Source: Candidatus Moanibacter sp.
GTDB taxonomy: Bacteria > Verrucomicrobiota > Verrucomicrobiia > Opitutales > UBA2987
Assembly (NCBI GenBank): GCA_965215885.1
Contig: CBDCEW010000084.1
Location: 1-64,000, forward strand
Direction: 5' to 3'
DNA length: 64,000 nt
Below the pieces are notes generated by a model. It saw nothing but the letters and a program-made list of their open reading frames with translations, was not told where the DNA came from and ran no database searches. The translations under genes and the position numbers were made by a program. Below are positions 1-62,440 of the stretch, in pieces; position 1 is the first letter of the stretch; each line of letters begins with the position of its first letter.

Positions 1-490
1 AGGTCATGAGTCCCCGGTTGCTGTGCGCGTTCGGGACCGATCGTTCGCACTTCGAAACGGCCCAGAACATGACCCAGTGGAATGGATCCGCTCCGGTCAC
101 GATCAACAGCGGGCAGGACAAAAGAACCGGACAACCGAAACGAATGGTCAACTGGCGGTGGGCGGCTCCTACCTTCGTGCGGCAAAGTTTCGTTGAATTT
201 GCCGAACATTCGATCCGAAACTGTGCCTGGGCAAAGGCCTTTTACCAGATCAAAAAAGAACAGGGCAAACCCCGCCAAACCATTCTTCGTGCCCTCGCTC
301 TCAAGTGGACCCGCATTCTGTTTCGCTGTTGGCAAAATAGCGAACGCTACGATGAGCAAAAGTATCTCCAATCGCTCCAACGCACCGGTTCACCGGTGTG
401 GAAAAGACTTCAGCAAGCAAATGCCAACGCCTTGTAAACACAACATGAGAAAAAACTCAAAAAATCCCTTGACGGACTACATCAGTTTTC
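1..490 (+). mobile_element. IS110-family element, 3' part and right end (duplicate of 54653..55142)
   Basis: ORF 6..437 is identical to the C-terminus of the 436-aa IS110 recombinase at 54706..56016. The right end carries TTGACG at 469..474. Confidence 0.92.
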
Positions 491-3114: not shown

Positions 3115-3210
3115 GAATCTGTCGGTCTCATCTGCGTCGGAATGTCGATCTGTCACCATGAATTCGTCGATATGGGGGTGTTAAGAATTCTAGGTCCGAC
3201 AGATTCCTAG
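3111..3210. repeat. ~100-bp MITE-like element with terminal inverted repeats CTAGGAATCTGTCGG...CCGACAGATTCCTAG
   Basis: Perfect 15-bp TIR overlapping the tyrA TAG stop; related copies at 51933..52032, 62343..62440 and 38419..38453. Confidence 0.85.
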
Positions 3211-3216
3211 CTTGGC

Positions 3217-4575: not shown

Positions 4576-4578
4576 ACA

Positions 4579-5268: not shown

Positions 5269-5860
5269 AGACGTGGCTGTGAATTGCATTGTTTAGGAAC
5301 ATAACGCCAATTCATTCGATGCCATAAATCGAGCTGACGCCTCTCATATATTTTGAGTTCCTGACAATTCGAAACGGCATCTTAGAAACTACTCGATGCA
5401 CGTCGTCACTGAATTCCGGATCATATTTAAGCTCAACAATAACGGTGGATTCTTTTCTACCTCTTCGAAAACCGCACCCACCTGCTTGAACTCCGTAATA
5501 TTCGAGCCCCCAGTCGATCGTTACTCGATATCTTCCATCACGCGATACAAAATACTTTCGCCGGTAGCGAGTAACAATGGTTAAGATCTTCTTAAGGCAA
5601 ACTTCCAAAATACGAGGATCAACCTCCCCTTCCCTAAGTTTCGAGTGGAGGATAGAAGAAGATATACGCCCATCAAAGTTAAACTCCGGCAATCGGTACC
5701 TTCTCTTCGCTCCTAAAATGCTGAAGCGCATTTTTTCCTCAAGAACCGGACTCGTGATTTTTCCTCGAAGACTACCGTACCACCGAACTCGATGTTTGGC
5801 TCGATCGCAGACTCCTGCAAGGTGTTCGGTATGATTCAGAAAATCATAAGTATCTAGGTA

Positions 5861-7778
5861 GACCCCATTCGAAAAGCCTTTCGAGCGGGCGGTTTAAGGT
5901 TCTCCGCCACGGGCGGACCAGCCTATGGCTGGCAGGTTTCGGGTTTTAGGCTGCCGGCGCTGCCGATGAGCAGGTATTGAGCGGCCATCGGCGTGGCTTG
6001 CTGCACAATACGTATATTTGCCGCTGTCTGGAGGCATACTCATCCCGTGGTGCTTTTTTCTCTGAGCTTCAAAGCGGTCAGATTCAGGCTGCCTGTTCCA
6101 GTTCCTCCCCTCGGCGTTTCTTCATCAGTATGATGCGGCAGAAGTTGTAGGCCAGAACCTTCTCGGGCAGTTCATCGCCTACCGCATCGATGCCGCGGCG
6201 GCCGAGTTCGCCAAAGGCAAATCCATCTTTAATCGTGAACATCAGCGACTCCACTGCGGAGCGATCGCGGCGTGCCTCGCGATACGCCTCGCTCTCCCAG
6301 TCCTCGGGGGTGGTCAACTTCTTGCCCTTCGCCCCACTGATACTGATCTGCTTTACCCCCATGCTCAGCACCTCCTTGCGTCCCTTCGCCGAAGCATATC
6401 CGTCATCGGTGCTGACCAGTTCAGCAATGACACCGGTGCGCTTGATCGAATCGCCGATGGCCGGCGCCAGCTCAATGGAGTCTGCCGCGTTGCCTTGCGG
6501 TACGATCAGGCTGGTGACAAAACCGTTTTCGCTGCGAACCAGTTGTGGCTTGTACCCGATCACTGGATTGCGGCTGCCCTTCTTGATGTAGGCCGCCGAT
6601 CCGTCCGAGAGGCTCAGGACCTTCTGTGTGGACGGTAGCTTCTTTTCGTGAAACACCCGATCATGAGCATACTCAACAACCCGCTTGGCGTCGGCAATAT
6701 CGCCCCTGATCTGGCTCAATGCCCGCTCCAGAAGCTCCCGGCGAGTGGGAGGCAGTGAATCCATCGACAGGCCCTCTTCAAGATGGCTCAGTTCCCCCGT
6801 TAGTGAGTCGGCCGCCTTGCGGCCCCGCTTGAGCAACCGCCGGTAGTGTTTCTTCAGCTTGCCCTTCGACTTCGGTTTGCCCGCGGCCAGACAAATCTGA
6901 AACTCCAGCTTGTCCATTTCCTCCAGCCAACGCCCAACCCATCCCTTGCGAAAATCCTCCAGCCCGAAGACATGCAACTTCTGACCCAAACGATTGGCCC
7001 GCATCAAAAGACCGCTCAGAATCTTCCCATCGGTGGGCCAGCAGCTGTTTGCTTTCACCGAGGTGCTGTCGATCGTCAGCTTCCCGAAATCGTCCCATTG
7101 CTCCTGGAGGATAAACCCAATCTGTTTATCAAAGATCAACTCGCGGGTCGTATGGCTGACCAGGTTCACGTTCTCCAGAATCGTCGTCACCGCCGGCATT
7201 CTCAGTCCCCCGCTCTGCAAAAATCCGTACAAGCTCATCGACTCGCGCACAAACCGCCGTGCCGGTTTCGTGGTCAACGAACCCAGAAACCCTCGAAGCA
7301 TCACGAACACGTATACCGCATAAGCCGGCATCCGCGGCCGGCCTGCCCCAAGATTCAATTCAGCAGCCAGAATATTCTCCTCCTCGATGTCCAGCTCCGG
7401 CAGCTCCGCTGTGCGCCCTTCAAAGAACCTTCGATCTTCCAATCGAAGTTTCTTCTTCTCACGCGCATGGGCGTCCAGATCCTTCTCGATCGCCTCGATG
7501 ATTTGCGCCGCGAACCCGGCCAATTCTTGAACTTCATCCAGAAAATCACGGAAATCCGTGTCTGGAACCGGCAGAATGAGGTTGCTAAGGGGCGTCTTAT
7601 CGCTTTTGTTCTCCTCTGTCGCACATGTTGGCATGTTTAACTCATTTCTTAATCTTAAGTTGTTAAACACTAGCATGTTGCGACACTTTTTATCAAGCCG
7701 AAAAAATGATTTTTCTCAAGTTTTTCTTGCGCCTTTTGCGCCTCTTTGCGGCCAATCAGTAGCTTTTCGGATAAGGTC
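5861..7778 (-). mobile_element. ISNCY/IS5-like DDE insertion sequence, copy 1 (1918 bp)
   Basis: Ends GACCCCATTCGAAAAGC / GCTTTTCGGATAAGGTC (14/17 IR). TSD TAGGTA at 5855..5860 and 7779..7784. The empty site is visible in the duplicate at ~49270. Confidence 0.95.
6084..7634 (-). CDS. DDE transposase (ISNCY/IS5-like); start at MPTCATEE assumed
   Basis: IDSTSVKANSCWPTD, STDDGY, RSAVES motifs. Confidence 0.9.
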   Translation of the reverse strand: MPTCATEENKSDKTPLSNLILPVPDTDFRDFLDEVQELAGFAAQIIEAIEKDLDAHAREKKKLRLEDRRFFEGRTAELPELDIEEENILAAELNLGAGRPRMPAYAVYVFVMLRGFLGSLTTKPARRFVRESMSLYGFLQSGGLRMPAVTTILENVNLVSHTTRELIFDKQIGFILQEQWDDFGKLTIDSTSVKANSCWPTDGKILSGLLMRANRLGQKLHVFGLEDFRKGWVGRWLEEMDKLEFQICLAAGKPKSKGKLKKHYRRLLKRGRKAADSLTGELSHLEEGLSMDSLPPTRRELLERALSQIRGDIADAKRVVEYAHDRVFHEKKLPSTQKVLSLSDGSAAYIKKGSRNPVIGYKPQLVRSENGFVTSLIVPQGNAADSIELAPAIGDSIKRTGVIAELVSTDDGYASAKGRKEVLSMGVKQISISGAKGKKLTTPEDWESEAYREARRDRSAVESLMFTIKDGFAFGELGRRGIDAVGDELPEKVLAYNFCRIILMKKRRGEELEQAA

Positions 7779-7926
7779 TAGGTAGATGCTATTTACCCAT
7801 CGGGGTGGAAAGTTCTCAGAAAACATCGCGGGCGAGATTCTGATCATACCCTCAATCTCCCGACAGTCGCCACGGGGTATGACAAACTTCCGCTCCTCTC
7901 GAAAGCTCAACCCTTCCTCAGGCGAC

Positions 7927-10900
7927 CTAATCATCGTATTCACATCCCACATTCCACAATCGCTGCGACCCCTTTAACCCATAGTAACTCACCAAATACC
8001 CGTTTCCTTTTCCGAGGCAGGGGGAGTCATCCGACAGACGAAAATCACGCCTGCCGGGATCTAAAAAAAGTGGCGGATCGCTCGAATTATCTGGACCGGC
8101 CACTCGCTGTCCAATGTGACTGTTAGACGCCCAAATGTGAGATCCCTTTTCAATGATGACGTCGGTTCGATTGCCAAAAACGATAGAGTTAATAAGCTCT
8201 CCTTTGCTCGGACCAAATTCAAATTTCTTTCTATAAAGAGCCAAACCCCACTTATTTCGAGTCACCGTATTATTAATCATAACGGGTTCAGAAAGATCTT
8301 TGATGGCAATTCCAATATTACAGTCAAGAATCAAATTGTTGTAGACTTTGGGAAAGGATTTCTCACCGATCGAAATACCTTTATCGCCGCCACCATAGAT
8401 CCGGTTATCTCTTATAATCGCCCAAGATGAGGACAAATCGATGGCATCGTCGCGACTGTCGCGAAAGGTGCAGTTCTTAACAATACCTCCACCAAAATCT
8501 ATGTCGACAGCGTCGAGATTGCGAACGAAGCGGCAATTTGATATCGTCGGTGACGCATACTTCGAGTTGATCGCATCGTCCGCGCGGTTGTCGCGAAAGA
8601 TACACTCCTCAACCGTCCCCTCGGAGAAATAAAGGGAGACAACCCCGGTATAATCTACCCGTCCCAAAGTCGCATTACTCCCGTACTCGAAGATACAATT
8701 TTGAAATACATTCATTCCTTGCCTTTGAGTTGCCACGGCAATAACTCCCCAATATTCACCTGGGTTTTCGGACGTAAACAGGATGGGTTCTTGCGGGGTA
8801 CCTTTCGCTTCGATCAAGCCTTTCACCAATAACGAACGCCCCTCCCTGATCGCGATCACCGCTCCCGCCTCGACGATCAATTTCGTCCCTTTTTCAACCA
8901 CATAATCCTCCTCTAACACTCTTTTACCGCGACTCCACACCACAGTCTTTTGAAACTGCGCAATGCCTGGCTGCAGCTTCCCAATGCCGTCAGGTTTCCG
9001 TTCCGATAAAGTGCCCTCCGGCGTGCGAGGATGTGAAACCAATTCCATCGTTCGAGTCATACCGCTCTCTACTCTCGATCCGGAATGTGCCTGCTCGGGA
9101 GACACTCCTGAGGGCAACGGATCACCGGTGACAGAATTTCTCGCTGCCACTGATAGTACCTCCCATGCAACTGTACTCGGCAGGACCCTTTTCCCTCTGA
9201 GCGCCAATGAGAGAGTATGAATCGTCTTCTGAGGGGTATAAAGCTTCCCAGTTTCCATTGGGTACGGTGACACAAAGATCCCATTCTCAAGCGGCACCTG
9301 GTAGGGGATCCCGGAGACGCGCGATGGGAAGGACCGAGCAATTTTGAACGAAACCAGCATCTCTTCGCCATTCCCATTTGATTCGCTAATGGCCTTAAAT
9401 TGCTGACCACTCTTCGAATCGAGAACTATGAGGTCCTCAATGGATTCTAACTGTAATCCTCTAATTCCGATCCTCAGAGTTTCAACATACGGGGCTATGT
9501 GTTCGCTGCTCGTTAGTTCGATTCTACCTAATAAAGTCAACGCACCCAACAGAGATTCGGCCACGAATTCCCCTGGGCCGGATGGCTTTGCCGATACGGT
9601 TAAATCGCAGCGGTTAAACTCCGACTTCAGATATTGATCTCGCAATACCACCAACTCCTTCAGGCGCGAAATGCTTTCTTCCCACTGCTCATTACTGATA
9701 TACATCTGAACGTATGGACTATAGTGTATACGAGAGTCGGCATAAACATCCTCTTTAACCAGTTCATAAAGTTCATCTATTTTCGCCAGGATTCGGCTTC
9801 GTTCATGGCTGGAGGTTAGGAGTTCCCAGGTCCTCGAATAATACCTCTCGCGGAAATCCTCTAAATGAAACAGGCCATCCATATCATCGTTTATGGCAAG
9901 ACCAAGTGGGTAAACTTTCCAACCCAGCCTCTTTATCAGCCTGAAATCATTGCCACTTCTATACGTGGTCGGCCCCTGGTACCATGGAACGATCTGAAAC
10001 TTCCCTGAAACTGGATCAAAGATCCATCGTATATTATGCCCGGAAGGATTTAGGCGCGCCATAATGGCTGCATGCGCGCAAAACGTGAGATACTGGTCAA
10101 TGTCGAGAATCTCCTCGATCTTCTCCTTATACCCGGGTCTGCCCTTACTGAAGATTGCCCGGTATAATTCCATCAAATTCTCAAATGAGTGCCTATCCTT
10201 CCATGCCGAATACTTCTGCCAACTATCGGGATTTAAGAATCCCTTCTTCGAATCAATCGGTTTCTTCTCTCCGTAAAAGTCTCCCACCGCTCGGTTATGC
10301 TTGATAAAAAAGCGCTCTCCAGGCTGCTCAAGATACGTCTGAATACCCGCAAACCTGCCGTTGATGCGGAGATGCACCATGAACTGCGTTGGCACCAGTA
10401 ACCCGGAATCCCGCAATAATTCACTCCGCAAAACATCAATTACAGCGGTATGGTCCCGCTGATTTATGATATTAATCTCACGGAGACCGTAAAACAGGTT
10501 GTCTTTAGGAAACTTTACTCGCCAGGATTTCTTCTGAACCATAAAGTGATCCATGTTCCATCCACGAAAACGAACTTCCACGTCATAGGTTCTTCTCCCG
10601 TAAGTCAGCGCTGCAGGGACCCAAGGCCACTGTGGGCCGTCAACACCGGCAAACCTGGAAAAGTTTGTGACTTTGTTGATGTTCGGATCGATTTCCGGAA
10701 TGGCCTTGAGCAATGTCTGCATACTCAACTCGGGAATTGTTAGCTCGATCACAGGAAGCTTTGTCTTCTCAAGACTGTCACCTTGCCTATCCGGACTGGG
10801 AACTACGTTGATGGAACGTTCTGCCGGCGTAACGAATTCTTCCGCAAACGGATTGAGTGCAGAAGCCATGGTATGGTAGACCCCGCTCTTCGCCCAATCC

Positions 10901-11295
10901 GGTGCGAAGGCAGCTACGGCAAACGAAAGAAGCAACAAAGCGAAAATAGCATTCGGTGCATTGTGTAAAGCTGGTGAAGTTCCTTTCCCCTCTTTCCTGT
11001 CCTGATCCCTGGAAATCAAAAGAGCTTCGGGTCTGGAAGACCGCATTGAGAGAAATAGATTCAACGAACGAACCCACCGCCTGACAACGAACGGGGAAGA
11101 GAAAACCAGCAACGCAATTCCAAAAAAAACCAAATCCTCGGATTCGATGGCAAAATCCCGGGACAGATAGTCCTTAATACCTACCCATTCGAAATAGTCG
11201 AAGAAGAGGGCCAGGGTAATCAAAATAACCGGTAACAACAGCACCACCAAAGAGTACTTCAAAACCCGCGCTGATCCAGGATTGAGACGCATCAT
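7927..11295 (-). CDS. CotH-kinase family protein with N-terminal TM helices and a C-terminal right-handed parallel beta-helix
   Basis: VRFRG...HF...KKSWRVK, VHLRING..AG...LEQ and HNIRWIFDP.SG.F...PW CotH motifs; DDAIN/DDAID/DKGISIGE beta-helix repeats. Confidence 0.85.
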   Translation of the reverse strand: MMRLNPGSARVLKYSLVVLLLPVILITLALFFDYFEWVGIKDYLSRDFAIESEDLVFFGIALLVFSSPFVVRRWVRSLNLFLSMRSSRPEALLISRDQDRKEGKGTSPALHNAPNAIFALLLLSFAVAAFAPDWAKSGVYHTMASALNPFAEEFVTPAERSINVVPSPDRQGDSLEKTKLPVIELTIPELSMQTLLKAIPEIDPNINKVTNFSRFAGVDGPQWPWVPAALTYGRRTYDVEVRFRGWNMDHFMVQKKSWRVKFPKDNLFYGLREINIINQRDHTAVIDVLRSELLRDSGLLVPTQFMVHLRINGRFAGIQTYLEQPGERFFIKHNRAVGDFYGEKKPIDSKKGFLNPDSWQKYSAWKDRHSFENLMELYRAIFSKGRPGYKEKIEEILDIDQYLTFCAHAAIMARLNPSGHNIRWIFDPVSGKFQIVPWYQGPTTYRSGNDFRLIKRLGWKVYPLGLAINDDMDGLFHLEDFRERYYSRTWELLTSSHERSRILAKIDELYELVKEDVYADSRIHYSPYVQMYISNEQWEESISRLKELVVLRDQYLKSEFNRCDLTVSAKPSGPGEFVAESLLGALTLLGRIELTSSEHIAPYVETLRIGIRGLQLESIEDLIVLDSKSGQQFKAISESNGNGEEMLVSFKIARSFPSRVSGIPYQVPLENGIFVSPYPMETGKLYTPQKTIHTLSLALRGKRVLPSTVAWEVLSVAARNSVTGDPLPSGVSPEQAHSGSRVESGMTRTMELVSHPRTPEGTLSERKPDGIGKLQPGIAQFQKTVVWSRGKRVLEEDYVVEKGTKLIVEAGAVIAIREGRSLLVKGLIEAKGTPQEPILFTSENPGEYWGVIAVATQRQGMNVFQNCIFEYGSNATLGRVDYTGVVSLYFSEGTVEECIFRDNRADDAINSKYASPTISNCRFVRNLDAVDIDFGGGIVKNCTFRDSRDDAIDLSSSWAIIRDNRIYGGGDKGISIGEKSFPKVYNNLILDCNIGIAIKDLSEPVMINNTVTRNKWGLALYRKKFEFGPSKGELINSIVFGNRTDVIIEKGSHIWASNSHIGQRVAGPDNSSDPPLFLDPGRRDFRLSDDSPCLGKGNGYLVSYYGLKGSQRLWNVGCEYDD

Positions 11296-11337
11296 TACGG
11301 CATCTGGCAGTTCGTTATATCTCCCTCTTCGTCAGTC

Positions 11338-12033
11338 CTAATCCTCTGTAAGAAACGCCGAATCAAAAAAGGACACTCTAATTTCTGTGAACGCACTCTC
11401 CAACGCCTCTTTGCAACGCATAAGCGCATCGTAGCTTTCTACGCCTATCAGGAATACGGCTTCCATACCATCTTCGTTTTCATCGAACCGTTTTAGAGAA
11501 ACGCCTGTGCAATGAGGTCGTAGTAGCTGAGGTATCTGTTTCAAATCACTCGCCGGTAATTTTGGTGAGCAAATGCTCAAAACCTTATGCGTCGCCTCGG
11601 AACCCTTTTCATCGAACGCCTGTAATCGAATCACGAAAGCGGCGACGAGAAAGCCGACTAAAGTAAGGACCGGCCGGTTGCCGCCCAGTCCCACGCCAAA
11701 CGCGATGATCAGAAAAAGGTAGACTAATTCTTCAGGGTCTTTTATGGCCGCGCGGAACCGGACAATCGAAAGAGCGCCCACAAGCCCCAGAGAGAGAGCC
11801 AGGGATGAACTCACTACCGATATTATCAGCGTCGTAACCACACACAACAGGACGAATGACTTGGCAAATCTACGACGGTTTGATAGCGAGCGTCCATATC
11901 GTATGTAGAGCTGTCCAACCAGAGTGCTGATTACTAAAGCTATCACCAGGTTGATACAAAACTCGGGCAGAGAAATAACGGAATCTGCGCTTGGGTTTAT
12001 CCAGGTCGAGAAAATCGATCTTTCAATATTCAT
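11338..12033 (-). CDS. DUF4956 family membrane protein
   Basis: SSLALSLGLVGALSIVRFRAAIKDPEE motif; usual neighbour of VTC and CotH genes. Confidence 0.9.
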   Translation of the reverse strand: MNIERSIFSTWINPSADSVISLPEFCINLVIALVISTLVGQLYIRYGRSLSNRRRFAKSFVLLCVVTTLIISVVSSSLALSLGLVGALSIVRFRAAIKDPEELVYLFLIIAFGVGLGGNRPVLTLVGFLVAAFVIRLQAFDEKGSEATHKVLSICSPKLPASDLKQIPQLLRPHCTGVSLKRFDENEDGMEAVFLIGVESYDALMRCKEALESAFTEIRVSFFDSAFLTED

Positions 12034-12038
12034 AGCTC

Positions 12039-13956
12039 GACCCCATTCGAAAAGCCTTTCGAGCGGACGGTTTCAGGTTTTCCGCCACAGGCGGACCAGC
12101 CTATGGCTGGCAGGCGTCGGGTTTCAGGCTGCCGACGCTGCCGATGAGCAGGTATTGAGCGGCCATCGGCGTGGCTTGCTGCACAATACGCATATTTGCC
12201 GCTGTTTGGAGGCATACTCATCCCGTGGTGCTTTTTTCTCCGAGCTGCAAAGCGGTCAGATTCAGGCCGCCTGTTCCAGTTCCTCCCGTCGTCGTTTCTT
12301 CATCAGTATGATGCGGCAGAAGTTGTAGGCCAGAACCTTCTCGAGCAGTTCATCGCCTACCGCATCGATGCCGCGGCGGCCGAGTTCGCCAAAGGCAAAT
12401 CCATCTTTAATCGTGAACATCAGCGACTCCACTGCGGAGCGATTGCGGCGTGCCTCGCGATACGCCTCGCTCTCCCGGTCCTCGGGGGTGGTCAACTTCT
12501 TGCCCTTCGCCCCACTGATACTGATCTGCTTTACCCCCATGCCCAGCACCTCCTTGCGCCCCTTCGCCGAAGCATATCCGTCATCGGTGCTGATCAGTTC
12601 AGCAATGACACCGGTGCGCTTGATCGAATCGCCGATGGCCGGCGCCAGCTCAATGGAGTCTGCCGCATTGCCTTGCGGTACGATCAAGCTGGTGACAAAA
12701 CCGTTTTCGCTGCGAACCAGTTGTGGCTTGTACCCGATGACTGGATTGCGGCTGCCCTTCTTGATGTAGACCGCCGATCCGTCCGACAGGCTCAGGACCT
12801 TCTGCGTGGACGGTAGCTTCTTTTCGTGAAACACCCGATCATGAGCATACTCAACAACCCGCTTGGCGTCGGCAATATCGCGCCTGATCTGGCTCAATAC
12901 CCGCTTCAGAAGCTCCCGGCGAGTGGGAGGCAGTGAATCCATCGACAGGCCCTCTTCAAGATGGCTCAGTTCCCCCGTTAGTGAGTCGGCCGCCTTGTGG
13001 CCCCGCTTGAGCAACCGCCGGTAGTGTTTCTTCAGCTTGCCCTTCGACTTCGGTTTGCCCGCGGCCAGACAAATCTGAAACTCCAGCTTGTCCATCTCCT
13101 GCAGCCAACGCCCAACCCATCCCTTGCGAAAATCCTCCAGCCCGAATATATGCAACTTCTGACCCAAACGATTGGCCCGCATCAAAAGACCGCTCAGAAT
13201 CCTCCCATCGGTGGGCCAGCAGCTGTTTGCTTTCACCGAGGTGCTGTCGATCGTCAGCTTCCCGAAATCGTCCCATTGCTCCTGGAGGATAAACCCAATC
13301 TGTTTATCAAAGATCAGCTCGCGGGTCCTATGGCTGACCAGGTTCACGTTCTCCAGAATCGTCGTCACCGCCGGCATCCTCAGTCCCCGCCTCTGAAGAA
13401 ATCCGTACAAGCTCATCGACTCGCGCAGAAACCGCCGTGCCGGTTTCGTGGTCAACGAACCGAGAAACCCACGAATCATCACGAACACGTATACCGCATA
13501 AGCCGGCATCCGCGGCCGGCCTACCGCAAGATTCAATTCAGCAGCCAGAATATTCTCCTCCTCGATGTCCAGCTCCGGCAGCTCCGCTGTGCGCCCTTCA
13601 AAGAACCTTCGATCTTCCAATCGAAGTTTCTTCTTCTCACGCGCATGGGCGTCCAGATCCTTCTCGATCGCCTCGATGATTTGCGCCGCGAACCCGGCCA
13701 ATTCTTCAACTTCATCCAGAAAATCACGAAAATCCGTGTCTGGAACCGGCAGAATGAGGTTGCTAAGGGGCGTCTTGTCGCTTTTGTTCTCCTCTGTCGC
13801 ACATGTTGGCATGTTTAACTCATTTCTTAATCTTAAGTTGTTAAACACTAGTATGTTACGACACTTTTTATCAAGCCGAAAAACTGATTTTTCTCAAGTT
13901 TTTCTTGCGCCTTTTGCGCCTCTTTGCGGCCAATCAGTAGCTTTTCGGATAAGGTC
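12039..13956 (-). mobile_element. ISNCY/IS5-like DDE insertion sequence, copy 2 (1918 bp)
   Basis: Same IRs as copy 1; TSD TAGCTC at 12033..12038 and 13957..13962. Confidence 0.95.
12262..13812 (-). CDS. DDE transposase (ISNCY/IS5-like)
   Basis: Near-identical to 6084..7634. Confidence 0.9.
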   Translation of the reverse strand: MPTCATEENKSDKTPLSNLILPVPDTDFRDFLDEVEELAGFAAQIIEAIEKDLDAHAREKKKLRLEDRRFFEGRTAELPELDIEEENILAAELNLAVGRPRMPAYAVYVFVMIRGFLGSLTTKPARRFLRESMSLYGFLQRRGLRMPAVTTILENVNLVSHRTRELIFDKQIGFILQEQWDDFGKLTIDSTSVKANSCWPTDGRILSGLLMRANRLGQKLHIFGLEDFRKGWVGRWLQEMDKLEFQICLAAGKPKSKGKLKKHYRRLLKRGHKAADSLTGELSHLEEGLSMDSLPPTRRELLKRVLSQIRRDIADAKRVVEYAHDRVFHEKKLPSTQKVLSLSDGSAVYIKKGSRNPVIGYKPQLVRSENGFVTSLIVPQGNAADSIELAPAIGDSIKRTGVIAELISTDDGYASAKGRKEVLGMGVKQISISGAKGKKLTTPEDRESEAYREARRNRSAVESLMFTIKDGFAFGELGRRGIDAVGDELLEKVLAYNFCRIILMKKRRREELEQAA

Positions 13957-14299
13957 TAGCTCTATCTTTAAACGATTCATTTAGCAATTTTGCATCCTCA
14001 AAAAAAATGCACTGAAATCGAGCAACTTCCGAAAATGGTACGATAAAGATCAAGCCAATTATACCGGCCCCTAGTCCTGGTGGCATATCCGCTCGGGCAT
14101 GCTGCCAGCATTGCATACTTGCGGGCAAACCTCAAGAGATGTGAGCTTTGGCGCAATCTCGAGCGAAGACAGGCTGTGTTTCTCCCCGCATTCGCTACCA
14201 ATTCGTCTCCATCTTCTTAACTCCGTTTGCGCCAAAGCCGTGAAATCTTCAGGCTAGTGAAGAACCCTGCCGAATTCCCGCTTGACTTTACCGTAGGGT

Positions 14300-14917
14300 G
14301 TGAAATCGACTGGTCGCATGCATCTGGTTTGCCTGGACCTGGAAGGCGTCCTCCTTCCCGAAATCTGGATCGCGGTCGCGGAAAAGACCGGTATTGCTGA
14401 ACTCAGGCGAACCACCCGCGATGAGCCCGATTATGACAGGTTGATGCGTTTCCGGCTGGATATTCTCTCTCGTCACAACATTGGAATCGACCTGATACAA
14501 GAGGCCATCGGCTCACTGGAGCCACTCCCGGGCGCGCTGGATTTTACCCGTTGGTTAATATCGGAAACTCGACTCGTTGTTCTCTCCGATACCTTTGCGG
14601 AATTTGCCGCTCCCCTCATGAAGCAGCTGGGTTATCCAACCCTCTTCTGCCACAATCTCGTGATCGATGATTGCGGCCGAATTGTTGACTACCGGCTGCG
14701 GCAACAGGATCAGAAACGAAATGCAGTCATCGCTTTTCAAAAGTTGAACTTCGAGGTCATCGCCGCGGGAGATTCTTACAACGACCTGAGCATGCTCCAA
14801 GCCGCTGACCATAGTATTCTCTTTTGTCCTCCGGACAGGATGCAGACGGAATATCCCGACTTTCCCGTCACAACCGACCACTCCGAGCTTCGCGCACGAA
14901 TCGAAGAGCTCATCTGA
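14300..14917 (+). CDS. thrH: Bifunctional phosphoserine phosphatase/homoserine phosphotransferase (HAD)
   Basis: CLDLEGVLLPEIW, TTRDEPDYD, LSDTF, AAGDSYND. Confidence 0.93.
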   Translation: MKSTGRMHLVCLDLEGVLLPEIWIAVAEKTGIAELRRTTRDEPDYDRLMRFRLDILSRHNIGIDLIQEAIGSLEPLPGALDFTRWLISETRLVVLSDTFAEFAAPLMKQLGYPTLFCHNLVIDDCGRIVDYRLRQQDQKRNAVIAFQKLNFEVIAAGDSYNDLSMLQAADHSILFCPPDRMQTEYPDFPVTTDHSELRARIEELI

Positions 14918-15111
14918 TACCCCGCCTCCTCTCGGGATACGGAACACTCTTGTTTGAGCGTTCCATAAATCTGATATTGAGATCTCTATTTACCGTTGCC
15001 GGCTTGTTTTATCCAAGCCGATAAAGGTATCGCGCGGCGGAACGGCGGCGGGCTGAAGGGAGTCAGCTTTTTATGAGTGTCGTTCAACCCGTTCGCTTAA
15101 CTTCCTCTTTC

Positions 15112-16500
15112 TTATTGAGAGGATTTTTTGCCATAAAATCCTATTCCGATAAGAAATGCTAAGGACAATAGTGAAATGATGATGCCAATAAGAAAAACCG
15201 GCCTGTCAACCTTGAATACCACATCATGTTCACCTGCAGGTAAAAGAAGCCCTCTGAATAGGTGGTTGACTGGATACACCCGGGTAGGTTTGCCATCCAG
15301 TTGACCTTTCCAAAGAGGATAGTATGCGTCAGTCAGAACTAACACTCCGGGGTTTTTCAACTTTGCCTTGATTTGACCCTCTGGGTTGAATATACTGTAA
15401 TCACCGGGAGTTCGTGTTTTGCAGGTTTTACAGGTAATTTCTGTTCGACCACAGCCATTTTAAAGGAATCAGGTATCTGAATACTTTTTCAAAGCGGCCT
15501 ATATAAAAAATGGCACCTGCAATCAGGCAAAAACCCGCCAATTGAGAGTTTTATCGAAGAGCTCGGCCTTTATATATGGGGCACTGAATAGGGACGCCTG
15601 GTCATAGGTTCGAGTAAGAATTGCAGGATCATTAGGAGGTAAAATCTGATAAACTCGCTCGCCCCAGGCACTGGATTGATTGACCAGGTTCAACTAAAAG
15701 TGAGAATTTCCGCCTTCAGGTGGATAGCCTAGTCCGAGAAGAAACAGTAAGAAAGTCAAAATACATCCCGTAGCAATCAAGCATTTCTTGAGTTCAGCCT
15801 TCGACCAATTTTGATTTAATGCAAATGCCGTCACCAAAGCAGAACCAAGCATGTAGAAGATAAGAAATCGCTGTAAGGAAAGATCTCCCAAAGATACCAA
15901 CGGCCCCAGTAGGATCCGGCTGTGCCATCACCAAAAAAGAACGGGCAGATTGCTGTTATGAGATTTTCTGGCGGCAACGAATAGCTACAGGCGAATTCAT
16001 AATCAACTTCTCTGGATCGGTGGGAATATCTCGTGAAATAGGCTGTTGGAATGGTTTGAATGGCGGCAATTACTAGGCTGAAGATGCTGGCCAATCCCAG
16101 TTTTCCCAGATTAACGACACTTTCATGTAGGTTTGTTTTCCGGATCAGAATCCAGGCAACCCAATAAAAGAAAAGAATCAGCCCAGTAAAATATGTGTAC
16201 TGCGGATAACCAGCCAGTAGCTGTATTCCCAATAGCCCACCCGTATAAATGGCATCCTTCCAGGAATTGTTTCGCAGAGATTTGTCCCAGAAAAGCAAAA
16301 TAACCGGAATCCAGGGACAGGTATTCACAAAACCTAAGTGGCCAGCATACAGGCGAATTGTAAACACCCCTGACAATGAGAAAACTGCAGCCCCGGTAAA
16401 TGGCCCAAACCTGTGCTACAGCAGGTGGCATCAGATCGGCAAGATAAGCATTAAAGTGGTAAATTTTAGAAAAACAGATTCGCCAAATCAGAAGAACCTT
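15112..16500 (-). pseudogene. Degraded YfhO-family (GT-C-like) membrane protein, several frameshifted fragments
   Basis: Fragments show QLLAGYPQY, SLPPENLIT..P.FFG and a C-terminal LVLTDAYYP.W....DG.......N..FRG....AGEH motif; lower GC than the flanks. Confidence 0.75.
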
Positions 16501-41783: not shown

Positions 41784-43678
41784 CAGGGTAAAAGGATTCC
41801 AGGAAGCAACTAGCTGATAAGCAAGAAGATAAAAAAAGAGCTAAACAAACCCGAGGGAATCAGTCATGTTAAGATGGGATGAAAGACAAAAAATCTTACC
41901 AACTGAATCCTTCGATAGATCGTTTAACTCTGCGTCTGGTCCTGCCCGAAGAGCAGGAGCGATTCAATGATCTATTGAAACAACATCATTATTTACACAG
42001 TGCGGGCAGCGCAGGAGAGACCCTGCGCTATGTGGCGCAGATCGACGGGCAATGGATGGGCCTGCTCTTGTGGGGGGCCGCATCCTACCGGCTGAAGGAT
42101 CGAGACGAATGGATCGGGTGGGACGGGGCGCAACGGCATGCACGATTGAAACTGGTAGTACAGAACCGGCGTTTTCTGATTTTGCCCGGGGTGGATCTTG
42201 CAAATTTGGCCTCCAAGACGTTGGGTATGTGCCTGAGAGTCTTAGCCGATCACTGGCAGGAGGCTTTTGGCTATCGTCCCTTAGTAGCGGAAACGTTCGT
42301 GGACCCACAGATTCACCGGGGCACTTGCTACGAAGCGAGCGGGTGGACGCCCTTGGGCTTGAGCGCGGGATATGGCCGCCAACGCGAAGATTTCTATCAA
42401 CGCCATGAGCGTCCCAAGCAGATCTGGGTCAAACCCCTCAAGGCTAATGCCCTTGAGCTTTTGCGCGCTTCAGGGCCATTGCCCGCGGCACAGAGCCAGG
42501 CGCTCAATGAAACCGATAACTCCCATGCGGTCTGCCTCAAAGTGGAACAGATGAGCAGCCTGTGGGAACGCTTCAATCAGATAGAAGACTTCCGTCGTAA
42601 AGCGGGCCTTAGATATCGGCTCGCCACGGTCCTGAGCATGATTGTGCTCGGCACGATGTGCGGCAAACAGACCCTCAAGGGCATCGTGCGCCTGGCCCAT
42701 CATCTCAATCAAGCCCAATTGCGCGCCTTACGCTCCTGGAAAAACCCCAAAACAGGCCGCTATAAGGCCCCTTGCTATGATGTCTTCTATCGGGTCTTGC
42801 AAAACGTAAAGGCCGAGCTCTTCGATAAAACCCTCACCGAATTCATCTGCTTACAAGACGGCTGTTTGCCCCGCGATATTGCCGTCGACGGCAAGACCCT
42901 CAAAGGCACAAACACCGAAGAATCAAAGGCTCTGCACCTGGTGGCCGCAGTCGATCACCAAAGCGCTCAAACCTTAGCCCAAGTCGCTACCGCCGATAAA
43001 TCCAACGCGATCACCGCCGCCCAGACTCTCTTGCGAAAGATGCCCATTTTGGACGGCTCCACCTTCACCTTCGACGCCATGCATAATCAAAAAGAAACTG
43101 CCCACATCGTCGTCGAAGAACTCAGTGCTGACTATGTTATTCAAATTAAAGACAATCAGCCCAACATGCATCAATACGCTCAGAATCTCTTCAGCTCCAC
43201 CCCCTTTTTCTCCACCAAACCGTGGACAATGACCATGGGCGACTCGAAATACGTCAAATAGCAACCCATTCTCTAAGCGCTCCCTCTGCCGGCCTGCCCC
43301 ATGCCCGCCAGTTCGCCTGTGTGCAACGCACCTTCCATTATCCAAACAAAGCTGAACCTTCCTCTGAACGCTCTTACTACGTAAGCAGTCTCGATCCCGC
43401 CGATTTGAGCCCTCAACAGTTCCTCTCGAAAATTCGCAACCATTGGTCGATCGAAAATAAAAATCATTACCCCAAGGGATCGCTTCTTCGATGAAGATCG
43501 ATGTATGATCCGTAATCATAACGCAGCCAGAATTCTTGCTGCATGCAGGCAACTGGTTCTCAGCCTCAAGTCTTCCATGGGCGCTGAATCCACTCCCGCA
43601 CTCTGTGATGATTTCGTCTTTAACTTACATAAGGCCATCAATATCATCACCTAATGCTCCGAGAATCAAAATACCGTG
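41784..43678 (+). mobile_element. ISAs1-family element with a DUF4338 (DruA-like) N-terminal fusion
   Basis: Ends CAGGGTAAAAGGATTC / GAATCAAAATACCGTG (imperfect IR); no TSD visible. Confidence 0.85.
41879..43654 (+). pseudogene. DUF4338-ISAs1 transposase in three frames (41879..~43205, ~43205..~43472, ~43472..43654)
   Basis: HHYL, RD.WIGW, ETFVD and GTCY.A.GW (DUF4338); AVDGKTL, FDAMH, HGRLE.R, HWSIEN and FDED (ISAs1). Confidence 0.85.
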
Positions 43679-51932: not shown

Positions 51933-52032
51933 CTAGGAATCTGTCGGACCTAGAATTCTTAACACCCCCATATCGACGAATTCATGGTGACAGATCGACA
52001 TTCCGACGCAGATGAGACCGACAGATTCCTAG
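51933..52032. repeat. ~100-bp MITE-like element (duplicate of 3111..3210)
   Basis: CTAGGAATCTGTCGG TIRs. Confidence 0.85.
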
Positions 52033-52895
52033 CTGCCCTCCAATTTTAGCCGAAGGCGGTCGCGGAAAGCTTTGCCGTGTTCGAGGACATTGAGAATCTC
52101 AAAGACCTGACCATTTGTGATGGCGGTCTTCATGGCTTGGAGTTCATCCTCAAACCCACCGATGGCACGGACGATTTCTTCGCGATTCTGTTCGATTATG
52201 CATTTCCAGAGACTGGGGCTTGCGGCCGCAACACGCGTCGAGTCGCGCAGTCCGTCTCCCGCAAAATTGCGCCAGTTGGAGTCTTTGGAGCCAAGGTAGG
52301 TACAGAGAACGCTGGCCAAAACATGGGGTAGATGGCTGATATTGGCTACGATTTCGTCGTGCTGCTCCGGCGTCACCGTTACGACTTCCATATCGAGCGC
52401 TTTCCAGAACAGCAGTAGCGATTCAACCGCCTTTTCATCGGTGTCAACTAGAGGTGTTACGAAACAGGCCTTCTTACGATAGAGCTCAGCATCCGCATAC
52501 TGCATACCGCTCTTCTCGGAGCCGGCCATGGGATGCGACCCGACGAATGCCGCATTGCCTGGAATCAGAACATGGCAATGGCGTGTAATCAGGCTCTTAG
52601 TGCTACCGACATCGGTCACGATTGCCCCCGGTTTGACACAACCGGCGATGCGGGCCACTATCCCTTGAACGGCTTCAACCGGTGTGCATACAACAACGAT
52701 ATCGGATCCTCGAACTGCCTCTTCAAGGGTCTCGGTTACAGAATCGCACCAGGGTTGTGATGCGCATTTGAGGCGTGTTTCGGGGCGGCGCGCCCATAGA
52801 ATGGTACGCTGAGAAATTTGGCGTGCTTTAACAGCCTGTGCCAGAGAGGCGCCTAGAAGGCCCGGTGCGATGATAGTGATCTGCTCAAACATCAA
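52029..52895 (-). CDS. tyrA: Prephenate/arogenate dehydrogenase, copy 2
   Basis: Same protein as 2248..3114. Confidence 0.93.
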   Translation of the reverse strand: MMFEQITIIAPGLLGASLAQAVKARQISQRTILWARRPETRLKCASQPWCDSVTETLEEAVRGSDIVVVCTPVEAVQGIVARIAGCVKPGAIVTDVGSTKSLITRHCHVLIPGNAAFVGSHPMAGSEKSGMQYADAELYRKKACFVTPLVDTDEKAVESLLLFWKALDMEVVTVTPEQHDEIVANISHLPHVLASVLCTYLGSKDSNWRNFAGDGLRDSTRVAAASPSLWKCIIEQNREEIVRAIGGFEDELQAMKTAITNGQVFEILNVLEHGKAFRDRLRLKLEGS

Positions 52896-54705
52896 TTTTG
52901 CTTTGATATTTCAACCGGTAAAACAGGAATGCGATAATGTAAATCAGCAGAGCGAGTTGTGCCAGGAACTGAAGCCCGAAGAGCATCGATAGATACTCGA
53001 GGCAGCCGCCCAAAACGGACCCCAGAAGGTTTGATCCGAGTGCTGAGGTGGGGTTAGCCGAACGGGAAAGGAGGATCGGGACGATAATACCGGCAAAGAA
53101 AATGGGAATAGCGATGAGAAGTCCACCGAGAATGCTTCGAGGGAGCATCTCAAAATGATTGAGTTCGCTGACCGGGAAATAGCATACCAGAACAACGGCG
53201 AAGAAGAGGCCTAAGAACCAGTATGTGGGATCTCTCAGACTGAAATGCATGACAACCAGATTGGCCAGCAGAACCATCGTCAGGATGGCAGCAAATACGG
53301 CGGAGTTTACAATCCATGTGGATCCGAAAAGAAGGGATAAGCTGGTGATGCCACGCGTCTCCAAAAGGAGAAATGAAGTGCCCATAAGAAAGAGGGTAGA
53401 GTCAAATTCCCGGACTACGTTTTTCTTCCCAAACGCGAATACGACCAATCCCGTTCCCAGGAGCAGGATGAAGAGCAGTACCAGGAGGTAGCCCCAAGGG
53501 AAGACTCCGGGACGTATGTAAAGAAAGGGCCAATCATCACTCGTGGTTCGAACCTGGGGTATCTCGCTCCCCGCCTCTATCGTCTGAAAGGTGTTCAGTC
53601 GGGCGTAATTGAGCTTGGCACTCTCTTTAGGGACGATGAAGGTTACACTGAAATGTTCTCTCTCGTGAAAAAGTGGTAGTGGCCGTATGCCGGTCGCCTT
53701 CGCGATTGTCGTATAAAGCCGCAAGAAAAACCACTCACCGGCATAAACGCTTATAGTAATGCTGAGATGCCCCCTATCAGAAACCAGCTCCCAGGCGGAT
53801 CGAATGCTGTCCTCGGTGTAGACGTAATTGTCAAGTCGCAACGAGGACATGGATGAAAACATGGCATGCGAGTCGAGGAAACCGAAACTGACGACGTCAA
53901 AGGGTTCACCCTGGTATTGTTCAAAGAAAGGTCTGGCATCGTTAACCACCGGAATTACCTCCGAATTTTGGTAAGGTTGTTCAGGGTGTAGCGATTGTCC
54001 CAATGCAATGATCTCTCCGTCGATATCTACAGAATAGATCATGGCGTAATCGTTTCGAATTGCCGCCTGAACATCGTTTCCGGTGCCGGCTCCCACAATT
54101 AATGCCCTTCTGCGCGCATCATTTATAAAAAAGGGTAAGTCGTAGACGCGTCTTAATCCGAATGCCAAGAGGTCTTTGCTTTGAGAGAGCTCCTCCCTGG
54201 ATAACGGGAGCTCGGAGAAATCATGCATGTATTGATGGAAATCCCGGTTTACCCTGATCGTGATTGCGACAGGATTGTCATGCTTAACATCGATGCGATT
54301 GTAAGGTGAGTATATTGCCCCCTGAATGGAAAAAGCGCTCAGAATTAGAATGCCGAGAAAGGCTGCAATGCTGTACCACTTTCGCGACAGCCAGCAGAAC
54401 GGTAATCCCCCAATCATGAACCAGATTGGAGGGTTCGCGGAGAACGAGGTTGCGATCGTGAATGCGATTATGCCCAGGAGCGAGCCGAGCAGATCTGCCG
54501 AGTAGGCACGAAGAGTGGGAATTCTACCAAAGAGATACCCAACAGGAGTTCCAGCAAATATAAAAACACTGACAATGAAGCAGAAGAGGCAGAGAAAAAT
54601 TGCGATGTTGAGACTGAAGGTAGAGAGAGACCAAGTGTTCAGCTCCCCATAAGAAAACTGAGGTAGTCCGTCAAGGGATTTTTTGAGTTTTTTCTCATGT
54701 TGTGT

Positions 54706-56016
54706 TTACAAGGCGTTGGCATTTGCTTGCTGAAGTCTTTTCCACACCGGTGAACCGGTGCGTTGGAGCGATTGGAGATACTTTTGCTCATCGTAGCGTT
54801 CGCTATTTTGCCAACAGCGAAACAGAATGCGGGTCCACTTGAGAGCGAGGGCACGAAGAATGGTTTGGCGGGGTTTGCCCTGTTCTTTTTTGATCTGGTA
54901 AAAGGCCTTTGCCCAGGCACAGTTTCGGATCGAATGTTCGGCAAATTCAACGAAACTTTGCCGCACGAAGGTAGGAGCCGCCCACCGCCAGTTGACCATT
55001 CGTTTCGGTTGTCCGGTTCTTTTGTCCTGCCCGCTGTTGATCGTGACCGGAGCGGATCCATTCCACTGGGTCATGTTCTGGGCCGTTTCGAAGTGCGAAC
55101 GATCGGTCCCGAACGCGCACAGCAACCGGGGACTCATGACCTCGCCGGCTCCGGGAATGCCACTGAACACGGCTGCATCGGGATGGCTTCTGAATAGCTC
55201 CCTGATACGCTTCTCATACGCTTTGATCTGCGGGCACAGGGTCAAAAGCTGTCCGGCCAACGTCTGTGCTTTTCTGCTGGATGCTTCAATGATGGCTGCA
55301 TCTTCGGTCAAGGCTCGTGCGTTACCGATCAATTCGAGACGCTCCTGGATTTTGGCGTCACTGCGACAGTTGTGCTTATAGAAGAACTTTCGCAAGACAC
55401 CCTCCGATGCTCTGTGCAGCTTCTTGAGGGTCGGCCAACGCAATATAAAGTGCAGGCACAGGCCACTGCCTAGATCATCGAACAATTTCAAGACCAAAGG
55501 GTTATATTGCTTCAGACAACTGCCCAACTGCTGTTCGAGGCTGGTAGCCTGATCGACGAATCCACGGCGGTCCTCGCACAACAGGTTCAGCTCCCGTGTT
55601 TGGGCCGTGTCAGGTATGAAACATTTGGTAAAAAGCTCGGGATGTTTGAGGAAAAACTCCGCGTGTATTTGCGCATCGACCGGGTCGCTCTTGGCCCCTG
55701 ATGGATACAGCGCCCGGCGATAATCCTTCGCCCTGGCCGCATGCACTGGATAGATATCGACAAACTCCAAGCCCATCAGAAAGTTGATCAACCCTCCTCG
55801 CTTCTGGTCCACCACCATGGCCATGCGCTTGCCCACGCTGGCATACTTTTCTCTCATCTCTACGGCAAATTCGTGCAAGCTGACCGCATCCTGCGCCACC
55901 TGTCGATGGGTCCCTTTTCCCGTTTCGCTCTCTATGATCCACAGATCGTTTTTCTGATCCGCCCAATCAATTCCTATCACCACACTATATCGATTTGTTT
56001 TTTCCCTTTTCTGCAT
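54706..56016 (-). CDS. IS110-family recombinase (DEDD RuvC-like domain plus Tnp domain)
   Basis: GIDWAD, KSDPVDA, GIPGAG, GSAP.T.NSG, ALALKW.RILFRCW; RBS AAAGGA. Confidence 0.95.
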   Translation of the reverse strand: MQKREKTNRYSVVIGIDWADQKNDLWIIESETGKGTHRQVAQDAVSLHEFAVEMREKYASVGKRMAMVVDQKRGGLINFLMGLEFVDIYPVHAARAKDYRRALYPSGAKSDPVDAQIHAEFFLKHPELFTKCFIPDTAQTRELNLLCEDRRGFVDQATSLEQQLGSCLKQYNPLVLKLFDDLGSGLCLHFILRWPTLKKLHRASEGVLRKFFYKHNCRSDAKIQERLELIGNARALTEDAAIIEASSRKAQTLAGQLLTLCPQIKAYEKRIRELFRSHPDAAVFSGIPGAGEVMSPRLLCAFGTDRSHFETAQNMTQWNGSAPVTINSGQDKRTGQPKRMVNWRWAAPTFVRQSFVEFAEHSIRNCAWAKAFYQIKKEQGKPRQTILRALALKWTRILFRCWQNSERYDEQKYLQSLQRTGSPVWKRLQQANANAL

Positions 56017-56044
56017 CCCTTTGTTCCTTTAGTTTGTCTTTTTG

Positions 56045-56343
56045 CTTTTTTCAAAGGCACTGGATGTCCAGGCGAAGTCCTTATAGTTGGATCCTGTTAT
56101 GAGGATGTAAACTGAGTGTTCGTTTTCGGTCATCCAGGCAGGCCGTCCACTCGAAATTCTGTCGGAAGTCCTCTTCGGACTGATTCCTAAGTTCGTAGTG
56201 GACGGCTGCCTTTGAATATTTTCACCCTTAGCCAAACAAACTCTTTGACCCATCGCCAACCACTGATCGGCCAAGTTATTCACAAAGGGGCCTCGCCGAG
56301 TTTTTCCTGCGGCTCCACTCGGTCCCTTGGATGAATAACCTGG
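56045..56343 (-). ncRNA. Putative IS110 bridge RNA (5' hairpin, target-binding loop, donor-binding loop)
   Basis: Nested stems with two internal loops whose strands match the MITE TIR and the IS junction (see findings). Confidence 0.85.
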
Positions 56344-56347
56344 AGCT

Positions 56348-56353
56348 ACTATA
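56348..56353 (-). promoter_or_regulatory. -10 box TATAGT of a circle-junction promoter (the -35 TTGACG is at 54669..54674)
   Basis: Joining the right end to the left end gives TTGACG-N17-TATAGT. Confidence 0.85.
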
Positions 56354-56813
56354 AGTAAACTGAGGTGTCTGGAAACTTGAGGTGCACCAGTCCAAATTTC
56401 TGGGAAAATGCAAAAGGGATGCCGACCAAGAATAGAGAAGGGAGAGTAAGATGCACGAGCCCGCTAAATCGTTTTCCCAACGCGACTCCAATCCCCATTC
56501 CCAGAAAAGCGCCGATTAATACAATGTTGTTGAAGTAGGCGAATATCCTGATCTGGGTTGTGCTCCAGCGGATTATTGCCAGCTCAAGGGCTAATATTCC
56601 GAAGGTCGCCAATCCAATTTTGAAAGCGACTGGTCCGCCTTTCTCAGCCCACCCCGTCTCCTTTAGCAGGTTCAAGCGCATTTTGAGAGCGAGAGTTCTC
56701 TTCTCGTAGAAAAACCTTTACCCTTCATCAGCTGTAGGAGTAAACTGGGAGTGAATCTTCTCTAGGTGCCTGTCGGCGAAGTGAGAAAGTCTCTTAGGAT
56801 CGTTTGTAGATTC

Positions 56814-61055: not shown

Positions 61056-62345
61056 ATGGAAAGAGCAGGTGTGAATCATAGAAGGATACAATTTGTCTGT
61101 ATGGCGCTGTTGGTTGGCAGCCTCCTGTTTTATGTCACTCTGTATCCTCCCGCCTGGAGGCTTTTCATTGGCCCATATTACATGGGGTATCCATTTCTGG
61201 ATCTGCATGGCGTCCTCTCCTATGCCGAAGGGTATAATCGGGGTTGGAACTTAAGGACATTGGAGTCCAACCCCTTGGACTTTTTGAAAAGGGGAAATAC
61301 GGCATATCCCAATCTGTGGTATTCTCTCCCCGGAGCGTTAGGATTTACGCGTCAACATGAAATCCCTTTGGCTCTTATGATTGTCGTGGGATTTCTCTCC
61401 TTCCTCCTCTTTTTTCTCTACCCCCGTTCGTGGAAGGATGTCTTAATCGGTTTTCTTGTTATTTGCTCACCGGGAGCACTCCTGGCAATGGAGCGTGGCA
61501 ATAACGATCTCGTGATTTTTTTGTTGCTCGCCATCGTCCCGCTCTGCTTCGAGTGGCGGTCGCGTGTGGGATTTCCATTGGCGTGGACAGTGCTGCTGTT
61601 TGCCACAGCCCTCAAGTACTATCCGATTACCGGATATATTCTCTTTGTGAGGAATATAAAGCAGCTGCGCCTACTGTTTTGGTATGCATTTGCGGCCTTC
61701 TTCGCGGTTTCGGCCTATTTCGCAGTCAATGTGGAGGATTTTCTTCAGGTTCCCCGGAATCTTCGGGCCTACACAGATCCCATCGACGTTTTCACTTTCG
61801 GAGCAAAGGGCTTCTTTTATTTTATCAGTTATGACAGAGAATACCTTGGAGTCTCCGTCCTTCTCGGCTTTCTGGCTATCTTGGGTGGGGCCGCCTTTTT
61901 CGCGAAAAAGACCGATTCTTCACTTCTACCGAGCTCTCAATGGCGTGAGAATTATTTCCTCTTGGGTGTCGCTATCTCGGCTTTCGCATTTTTTTTGATC
62001 AGCAGTTACGATTATCGGACCATTTTTCTTCTCTTTACGTTCCCTTACCTCCTTGAATTGGGAAAAGACTCAGGGGAAGCCAATCGTCTCAGGATAGCGG
62101 CGCGGGTTCTCACAGCGCTTCTGATTATCGTGATGTGGATCGAAACGGTCTACTTTTTTGTGGTCTTAGACCCGGTTCAACGCCAGTGGCATGCGGTAGG
62201 GGTCGGGTACGTGGTACTCATCAAGCACGGTTTGGCGTGGATTGTGATGGCAATGCTGGTAGGGTTGGCTTTCCTGCTTCTGAAGCCGAGTGTAGCGAGA
62301 CTTTGGGCATCTCTTCCACCATTGATAAAAGAGAAATCGGGATAG
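61056..62345 (+). CDS. Membrane glycosyltransferase-like protein (GT87/DUF2029-like)
   Basis: PF.DL, YP..W, ERGNNDL, LKYYP, YDYR.IFL. Confidence 0.7.
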   Translation: MERAGVNHRRIQFVCMALLVGSLLFYVTLYPPAWRLFIGPYYMGYPFLDLHGVLSYAEGYNRGWNLRTLESNPLDFLKRGNTAYPNLWYSLPGALGFTRQHEIPLALMIVVGFLSFLLFFLYPRSWKDVLIGFLVICSPGALLAMERGNNDLVIFLLLAIVPLCFEWRSRVGFPLAWTVLLFATALKYYPITGYILFVRNIKQLRLLFWYAFAAFFAVSAYFAVNVEDFLQVPRNLRAYTDPIDVFTFGAKGFFYFISYDREYLGVSVLLGFLAILGGAAFFAKKTDSSLLPSSQWRENYFLLGVAISAFAFFLISSYDYRTIFLLFTFPYLLELGKDSGEANRLRIAARVLTALLIIVMWIETVYFFVVLDPVQRQWHAVGVGYVVLIKHGLAWIVMAMLVGLAFLLLKPSVARLWASLPPLIKEKSG

Positions 62346-62440
62346 GAATCTGTCGGCCGAATCCGCGTCGGAATGTCGATCTGTCACCATAAAATCCGCT
62401 TCCCGGTGATGTTGGGAATTCTAAGTCCGACAGATTCCTA
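62343..62440. repeat. ~100-bp MITE-like element
   Basis: TAGGAATCTGTCGG...CCGACAGATTCCTA, with the internal GCGTCGGAATGTCGATCTGTCACCAT shared with 3111..3210. Confidence 0.88.

Follow-up and report, generated by a model that had tools for sequence, protein, structure and literature searches.

We analyzed a 64,000-nt stretch of DNA from Candidatus Moanibacter sp. (contig CBDCEW010000084.1, assembly GCA_965215885.1; the whole stretch is called the window below), in which an IS110-family element splits a gene for a membrane protein with a spermidine-synthase-like/class I SAM-dependent methyltransferase domain (assigned from the annotation of homologues). The features are listed below in the direction of transcription.

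56356..56681, minus strand: 5' part of the host gene (codons 1-109), 107 of 108 residues identical to the intact homologue P0001
56348..56366, minus strand: left junction, with the left-donor-like arm of the host (56366-56356), the CT core (56355-56354) and the left end of the element
54652..56355, minus strand: IS110-family element of 1,702 bp, or 1,704 bp when the repeated CT core is counted at both ends
56050..56230 (ends approximate), minus strand: predicted bridge RNA, a two-loop fold with target-binding and donor-binding loops
56182..56189, minus strand: left target guide, matching positions 1-8 of the site used by six of the nine on-target copies
56157..56166, minus strand: right target guide (56166-56159), complementary to the core and right target of the on-target copies, followed by the predicted AA handshake (56158-56157)
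56107..56116, minus strand: left donor guide, matching the host left flank at 10/10 and the element's own right end at 9/10 (mismatch at position 7)
56078..56087, minus strand: right donor guide (56087-56080), 8/8 complementary to the core and left end, followed by the predicted GA handshake (56079-56078)
54706..56016, minus strand: gene for the 436-aa IS110 recombinase, which scores above cut-off for both PF01548 and PF02371
54669..54674, minus strand: -35-like hexamer of the right end, 17 nt from the -10-like hexamer in the circular form
54646..54664, minus strand: right junction, with the left-donor arm of the element (54664-54654), the CT core (54653-54652) and the right-donor-like arm of the host
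54622..54630, minus strand: short TC run, where the frame changes and the host gene lacks 2 nt relative to the intact allele
52885..54651, minus strand: 3' part of the host gene, 98% identical to the 698-aa P0001

Sequence features place the element in the IS110 group of the IS110 family, with a predicted bridge RNA at its left end. Ten full copies, each 1,704 nt including CT at both ends, were found in the assembly, the nine others sharing the same end positions at 99.8-99.9% identity (assembly comparison), and all ten PF01548 matches in the assembly are full copies of this 1,702-bp element. Comparison of the ten copies fixed the core as CT, at 56355-56354 and 54653-54652. No terminal inverted repeat appeared among the 25 longest repeats listed. 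The recombinase has both the DEDD RuvC-like and the Tnp domains (PF01548, PF02371), and its match to NF033542 (119 bits) was under the cut-off of 140. Four residues (D17, D111, D114 and S328) were invariant in all 12 aligned recombinase sequences, and position 70 was D in six and E in six; together with D70, they are likely the catalytic residues, by analogy to IS621 and from conservation in homologues. The two-loop fold of the left end had a z score of -6.24, none of 200 shuffles being equally stable, and the predicted RNA, which may be expressed, had no Rfam match at E 0.1. The handshake role of the AA and GA bases is predicted by analogy with the system described in PMC11208158. In the circular form, the joined ends would make a promoter-like pair of hexamers with 17-nt spacing, a candidate junction promoter; the circle joint was not found in the contigs of four public runs, and such contigs cannot show its absence. 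A 211-nt internal fragment of the recombinase gene is also present on another contig (C99, 54428-54638).

Nine of the ten full copies lie in a repeat that is spelled by the target guides, and only the copy in the window (the odd copy) lies elsewhere. Over 14 positions, the flanks of six copies matched the target guides exactly and those of the remaining three had one mismatch, at position 1; some of the nine have common flanking repeat sequence and may not be fully independent. Since nine of ten copies sit in the guide-encoded repeat, both the guides and the core are validated in this genome. This usual target is an abundant palindromic repeat, with 164 perfect and 191 one-mismatch 14-mers among the empty sites. 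Pairs of it, about 97 nt apart and in inverted orientation, were observed at window positions 3112-3209, 51934-52031 and 62343-62440, and an empty perfect target lies less than 3 kb from the odd insertion.

The preliminary description of this locus had pointed to two nearly identical 16-mers at the junctions of the odd copy, and we found them at 56351-56366 and 54649-54664, 1,702 nt apart (family D7) and identical at 15 of 16 positions. It had further claimed that the host site mimics the donor and is unlike the target, which agrees with our comparison: over 14 positions the pre-insertion site had eight mismatches to the target, two to the element's own donor and one to the donor guides, and the left junction is a full match to both donor guides. 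With the right flank in the host, the right donor guide forms six Watson-Crick pairs, one G:U wobble and one mismatch. When the 14-mer implied by the donor guides was searched at 743,633 CT positions on both strands, no other site outside the copies was within one mismatch and 11 were within two; over 17 positions the host site had two mismatches and the next best site three (6.36 Mb). Thus, the odd copy occupies the best donor-guide match in the assembly while 164 perfect targets stay empty, and this is no coincidence.

The left half of the 16-mer is the element's own right end and the right half its own left end. Because all ten copies have the same right and left ends, the shared 16-mer is not a duplication. 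Comparison with the right ends of other copies, which had been proposed as a check, showed that the nine others carry both halves, and the approximately 16-bp duplication of unrelated sequence that would have spoken for a target-site duplication was absent from them, only the 2-bp CT being repeated in all nine. A target-site duplication of about 16 bp was therefore rejected. The odd copy alone differs from the other nine at element position 33 (window 56323), where all four public runs have the other letter; this could be a mistake of the assembly, or a change private to the odd copy that is masked where contigs were collapsed.

At the single A/T difference between the 16-mers (56356 versus 54654), the A is the host's base and the donor base is T, because T precedes the core on both sides of the nine other copies. 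The host codon, previously left as TAC or TTC (Y/F), is thus TAC (Tyr), and Y is also what two other comparisons gave. First, the intact 698-aa homologue P0001, 98% identical to the host protein, has Tyr at the insertion codon. Second, in a run from another study (X7) an empty-site contig skips exactly 1,702 nt and keeps the A; with a depth of 2 and 27 letters on its short side, it falls below our caution limit and is taken as support, not proof. TTC (Phe) was accordingly rejected as the host allele of this strain group, and Phe was found at the insertion codon in P0124, a more distant member of the cluster. The empty contig has one further difference that is common to run X5, which suggests that the strain in X7 never had the insertion, rather than having lost it by excision. 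The host left flank had no match among metagenome contigs when searched as DNA, and a near-identical host gene was not found among 40 other genomes (best 57%).

Two further runs contain the insertion, and either may be the source sample of the assembly. A 7,108-nt contig of run X4 spans the right junction without gaps, and X4 crosses both junctions with the letters of the window. Run X3 crosses the left junction (depth 10.9); the left-junction contigs of X3 and X4 reach 30 letters into the element, one fewer than our bridging rule requires. No contig of run X5 crossed either junction. At position 7 (56356), X3 reads G, compared with A in the window, X4 and the empty allele, a difference that could have arisen later, in a gene already dead, or could mark another allele. 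These contigs also bear on the idea that the junctions reflect a true duplication of about 16 bp or an assembly artefact. The contig of the window does have a long inverted near-duplicate and scattered single-base differences, but the nine other copies repeat only CT and share both 16-mer halves as their own ends, and public contigs from separate assemblies, possibly of the source sample itself, cross one or both junctions. We therefore regard this reading as scarcely credible. The near-duplicate (window 1-15348 versus 55142-43679, 99.6-99.8% identity) starts at the contig end within the IS110 copy and carries the same right junction; the two versions are set apart by single-base changes, an indel of 13 nt and DDE-transposase insertions that are not the same in both. 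It probably represents two strain haplotypes or a misassembly.

The position of the A/T difference deserves a correction. It had been placed in the 2-bp core and considered informative about core-mismatch tolerance; however, CT is intact in both partners, and the difference is the base just 5' of the core, position 7 in IS621 numbering. The case is therefore uninformative on core-mismatch tolerance, the mismatch being at a tolerant position outside the core. In the accessible part of Durrant et al. (PMC11208160), position 7 is the most mismatch-tolerant donor position. The left donor guide (56116-56107) does carry an A at the differing position, as had been noticed. Of 21 distinct guide-donor pairs from related elements (33-46% protein identity), 16 have a mismatch at position 7 and 16 have one at position 8, positions 1-3 being fixed by the search motif and hence uninformative; the guide letter at position 7 is A in ten of the 21 pairs listed. 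With a position-7 mismatch in so many related pairs, the idea that the left donor guide was copied from the host site was dropped. The T of the element at positions 6-7 fits the predicted AA handshake of the target loop. The A in the guide is thus a habit of the clade rather than a particular fit to the host site, and the case tells nothing about core mismatches. In the related loci (L005-L164), which have a conserved right-end plus left-end motif, the left donor guide is often unpaired at positions 7 and 8, a pattern that suggests a shorter functional left donor guide in this clade.

The locus is informative about the crossover position, as had been anticipated, since the crossover is bounded to positions 8-12 in the odd copy and to 7-9 in the on-target copies, the two intervals overlapping at the CT core. 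At the informative position, all ten copies have the host's letter in the left junction and the donor's letter in the right one; this is position 6 in the nine copies (their empty alleles being inferred from the repeat consensus) and position 7 in the odd copy. For IS621, cleavage occurs after position 9 on the top strands and between 9* and 10* on the bottom ones (PMC11208158, in the parts available); we take the bottom cut as lying between top-strand positions 5 and 6, so that positions 6-7 would be a possible heteroduplex. The pattern in all ten copies is the top-strand pattern and is in line with a report, as far as its available text goes, that integration proceeds mainly via the top strand (bioRxiv 10.1101/2025.10.25.684509). 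It could equally arise if intact ends were selected for. The uniform top-strand inheritance at positions 6-7 may offer a natural readout on whether bottom strands are exchanged at all in vivo.

Taken together, donor-donor recombination through two donor-binding loops is the best explanation of the odd copy, and we hold it to be quite probable, in keeping with the natural off-target insertion at a donor-like site, splitting a membrane SAM-dependent methyltransferase-like gene, that the preliminary description had proposed. The element would move as a circle (or by strand transfer), its joined ends forming the donor site, and the bridge RNA would normally pair this donor with the repeated palindromic target. 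Here, the partner would be a chromosomal site that by chance is almost identical to the donor; two recombinase dimers, with donor-binding loops from separate bridge RNAs, would bind the real donor and the look-alike, the top strands would be exchanged at the common CT core, and the outcome would be the element inside the host gene with a donor-like site at each end. This route accounts for all the features of the odd copy. There is one event, however, and such a complex is invisible in sequence. There are precedents in the accessible parts of several reports: donor-donor recombination was shown in vitro for IS621 (PMC11208158), and donor-donor insertion was observed at low frequency in E. coli (PMC11208160), at 4 of 168 sites and in 11 of 5,183 reads on re-analysis (bioRxiv 10.64898/2026.08.31.748434), and dominates for IS622 in human cells (bioRxiv 10.1101/2025.05.14.653916).

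A variant that also depends on the donor guide is that a donor loop, perhaps as part of a mixed complex, recognized just one arm of the host site, most likely the left (10/10), the likeness of the right arm being incidental or merely helpful. According to the available part of the same re-analysis (bioRxiv 10.64898/2026.08.31.748434), a single half-site is enough for IS621 to recombine in vitro, and half-matches to the donor outnumber full LD+RD sites in E. coli (71 versus 4 of 168); the product of a route via one donor arm would also be the same. However, the host site resembles the donor in both arms, no full match elsewhere in the genome is as good, and sites matching the left arm only are expected to be far commoner; we judge this variant unlikely. 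It is less plausible still, indeed very improbable, that host-mediated recombination joined the circle and the look-alike through microhomology, without the recombinase. The two partners do have 16 bp in common with one mismatch; however, the crossover fell in the shorter 5-bp block that contains the CT core and not in the 10-bp block. Bacteria recombine very inefficiently over a stretch as short as 16 bp.

Another possibility is that the target loop of a different IS110 element, then present in the same cell or its community, specified the site and was paired with the donor loop of this one. Co-expressed bridge RNAs cross-react in IS621, according to the accessible text of bioRxiv 10.64898/2026.04.29.721476, relatives at 70-79% protein identity exist, and a diverged remnant of a related left end is present near 7714-7785 of G000 contig C6 (76.7% identity over 73 nt). 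Since all ten PF01548 matches are this element, no other target loop is at hand in the assembly, which is 90% complete with 5.5% contamination and could thus lack another IS110; moreover, a foreign target equal to this donor at 12 of 14 positions was absent from 59 related elements. We consider such a foreign target extremely unlikely, and donor-donor recombination remains the reading that we prefer.

For the host gene, the claim that the insertion knocked it out is likely to be right, although the gene also carries a 2-nt frameshift, which may have come before or after the insertion. The frameshift lies approximately 25 nt downstream of the insertion and is also found in the second assembled copy and, without gaps, in run X4. 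The empty allele has 2,095 nt compared with the 2,097 required for P0001, so removal of the element does not restore the gene, the joined halves being 2 nt short. The simplest reading is that the frameshift represents decay after insertion. Homologues of the product carry PF01564 or PF13649, P0001 itself had no Pfam match, and the match to NCBIfam PRK00811 was weak and far under the cut-off. The stop of the host gene overlaps the start of a prephenate dehydrogenase gene, which is followed by aroA and cmk; because the element has the same direction as these genes, read-through from it may avoid polarity. The host flank and the left end of the element also form a weak promoter-like site directed toward the bridge RNA (window 56375-56348; 9/12, 16-nt spacer), and the number of such sites in the region is not above chance.

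To our observation, natural insertion at donor-like sites is rare. With an end-motif screen, both ends could be assigned in 59 of the 160 related loci, and the 101 others were set aside; none of the 59 (53 distinct site sets) had a donor-like insertion; their sites had 6-12 mismatches to the donor over 12 non-core positions, compared with two for the odd copy. A 14-mer direct-repeat screen of 125 of the 160 loci was rejected as too noisy (seven loci at two mismatches versus 2.4 in shuffled sequence), and its sole exact match was a 48-nt flanking repeat. Boundary walking was unreliable in multi-copy groups, and a single-protein search of the genome contigs did not find the recombinase locus.

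The element resembles IS621 in several respects, as described in the accessible parts of PMC11208160 and PMC11208158: the DEDD and Tnp domains, a non-coding left end with a (here predicted) two-loop RNA, the CT core, a promoter-like motif at the junction, palindromic repeat targets, the tolerant donor position 7, and rare donor-like insertions in experiments. In contrast with IS621 as described there, both the recombinase (436 aa) and the right guides (8 nt) are longer, the wild type itself has a guide-donor mismatch at position 7, where target and donor both have T, and the donor-like insertion is natural and chromosomal. IS622 (ISCro4) likewise inserts in human cells at donor-resembling sites, which is explained by two donor-binding loops; however, in the available text (bioRxiv 10.1101/2025.05.14.653916) that system is engineered, with one target per genome and 91.3% donor-like insertions, whereas here one of ten copies is donor-like in the presence of 164 perfect empty targets. 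The half-match and LD+RD off-targets of IS621 are also donor-guide-dependent insertions outside the target (bioRxiv 10.64898/2026.08.31.748434, accessible part). In the parts of the literature available to us, which may list further cases in supplements, natural chromosomal donor-like insertions were not found, the cases being from the laboratory only, and the accessible part of the ISPpu9 paper (PMC12288879) has nothing on donor-like sites. Thus, the odd copy is a natural chromosomal example of a route known from laboratory work and not a new mechanism.

With regard to the reverse reaction, the donor loop alone supports excision in the available parts of PMC13626964 and of the donor-guide half-match work on IS621, and donor-only excision was also described in expanded natural IS110 loci, where two-armed donor matches are essentially absent at internal boundaries (bioRxiv 10.64898/2026.08.14.744561, accessible part). 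The odd copy, whose left junction is a full donor match, might excise more readily. That it is excised by the donor loop only, free of an insertion bias, and so acts as a reversible switch or a hyperactive circle source appears rather doubtful to us; if true, its two donor-like sites in direct orientation would make a reversible switch of the host gene or a source of circles. An IS110 element inside a host gene is reportedly also the situation of IS492 in Pseudoalteromonas atlantica, where the flanking context is said to favour precise excision, perhaps, and phase variation has reportedly been shown. Unlike that case, the host gene here has a second lesion, the 2-nt frameshift.

Donor-like off-targets are a main specificity problem of bridge-recombinase editing, and this locus indicates that the same route is at work in a wild bacterium with wild-type RNA, where its product can persist in the population and can disrupt a coding gene even though the element usually targets repeats between genes. 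The donor, the nine used targets and the one donor-like site provide a natural substrate set on which donor-loop-only insertion and excision and the role of position 7 could be tested. Finally, high-copy DDE_Tnp_1 insertion sequences were observed elsewhere in the window (5860-7781, 12033-13959 and 41784-43678), and the region 41879-43261 encodes an N-terminal DruA-like domain (PF14236) fused to a transposase.
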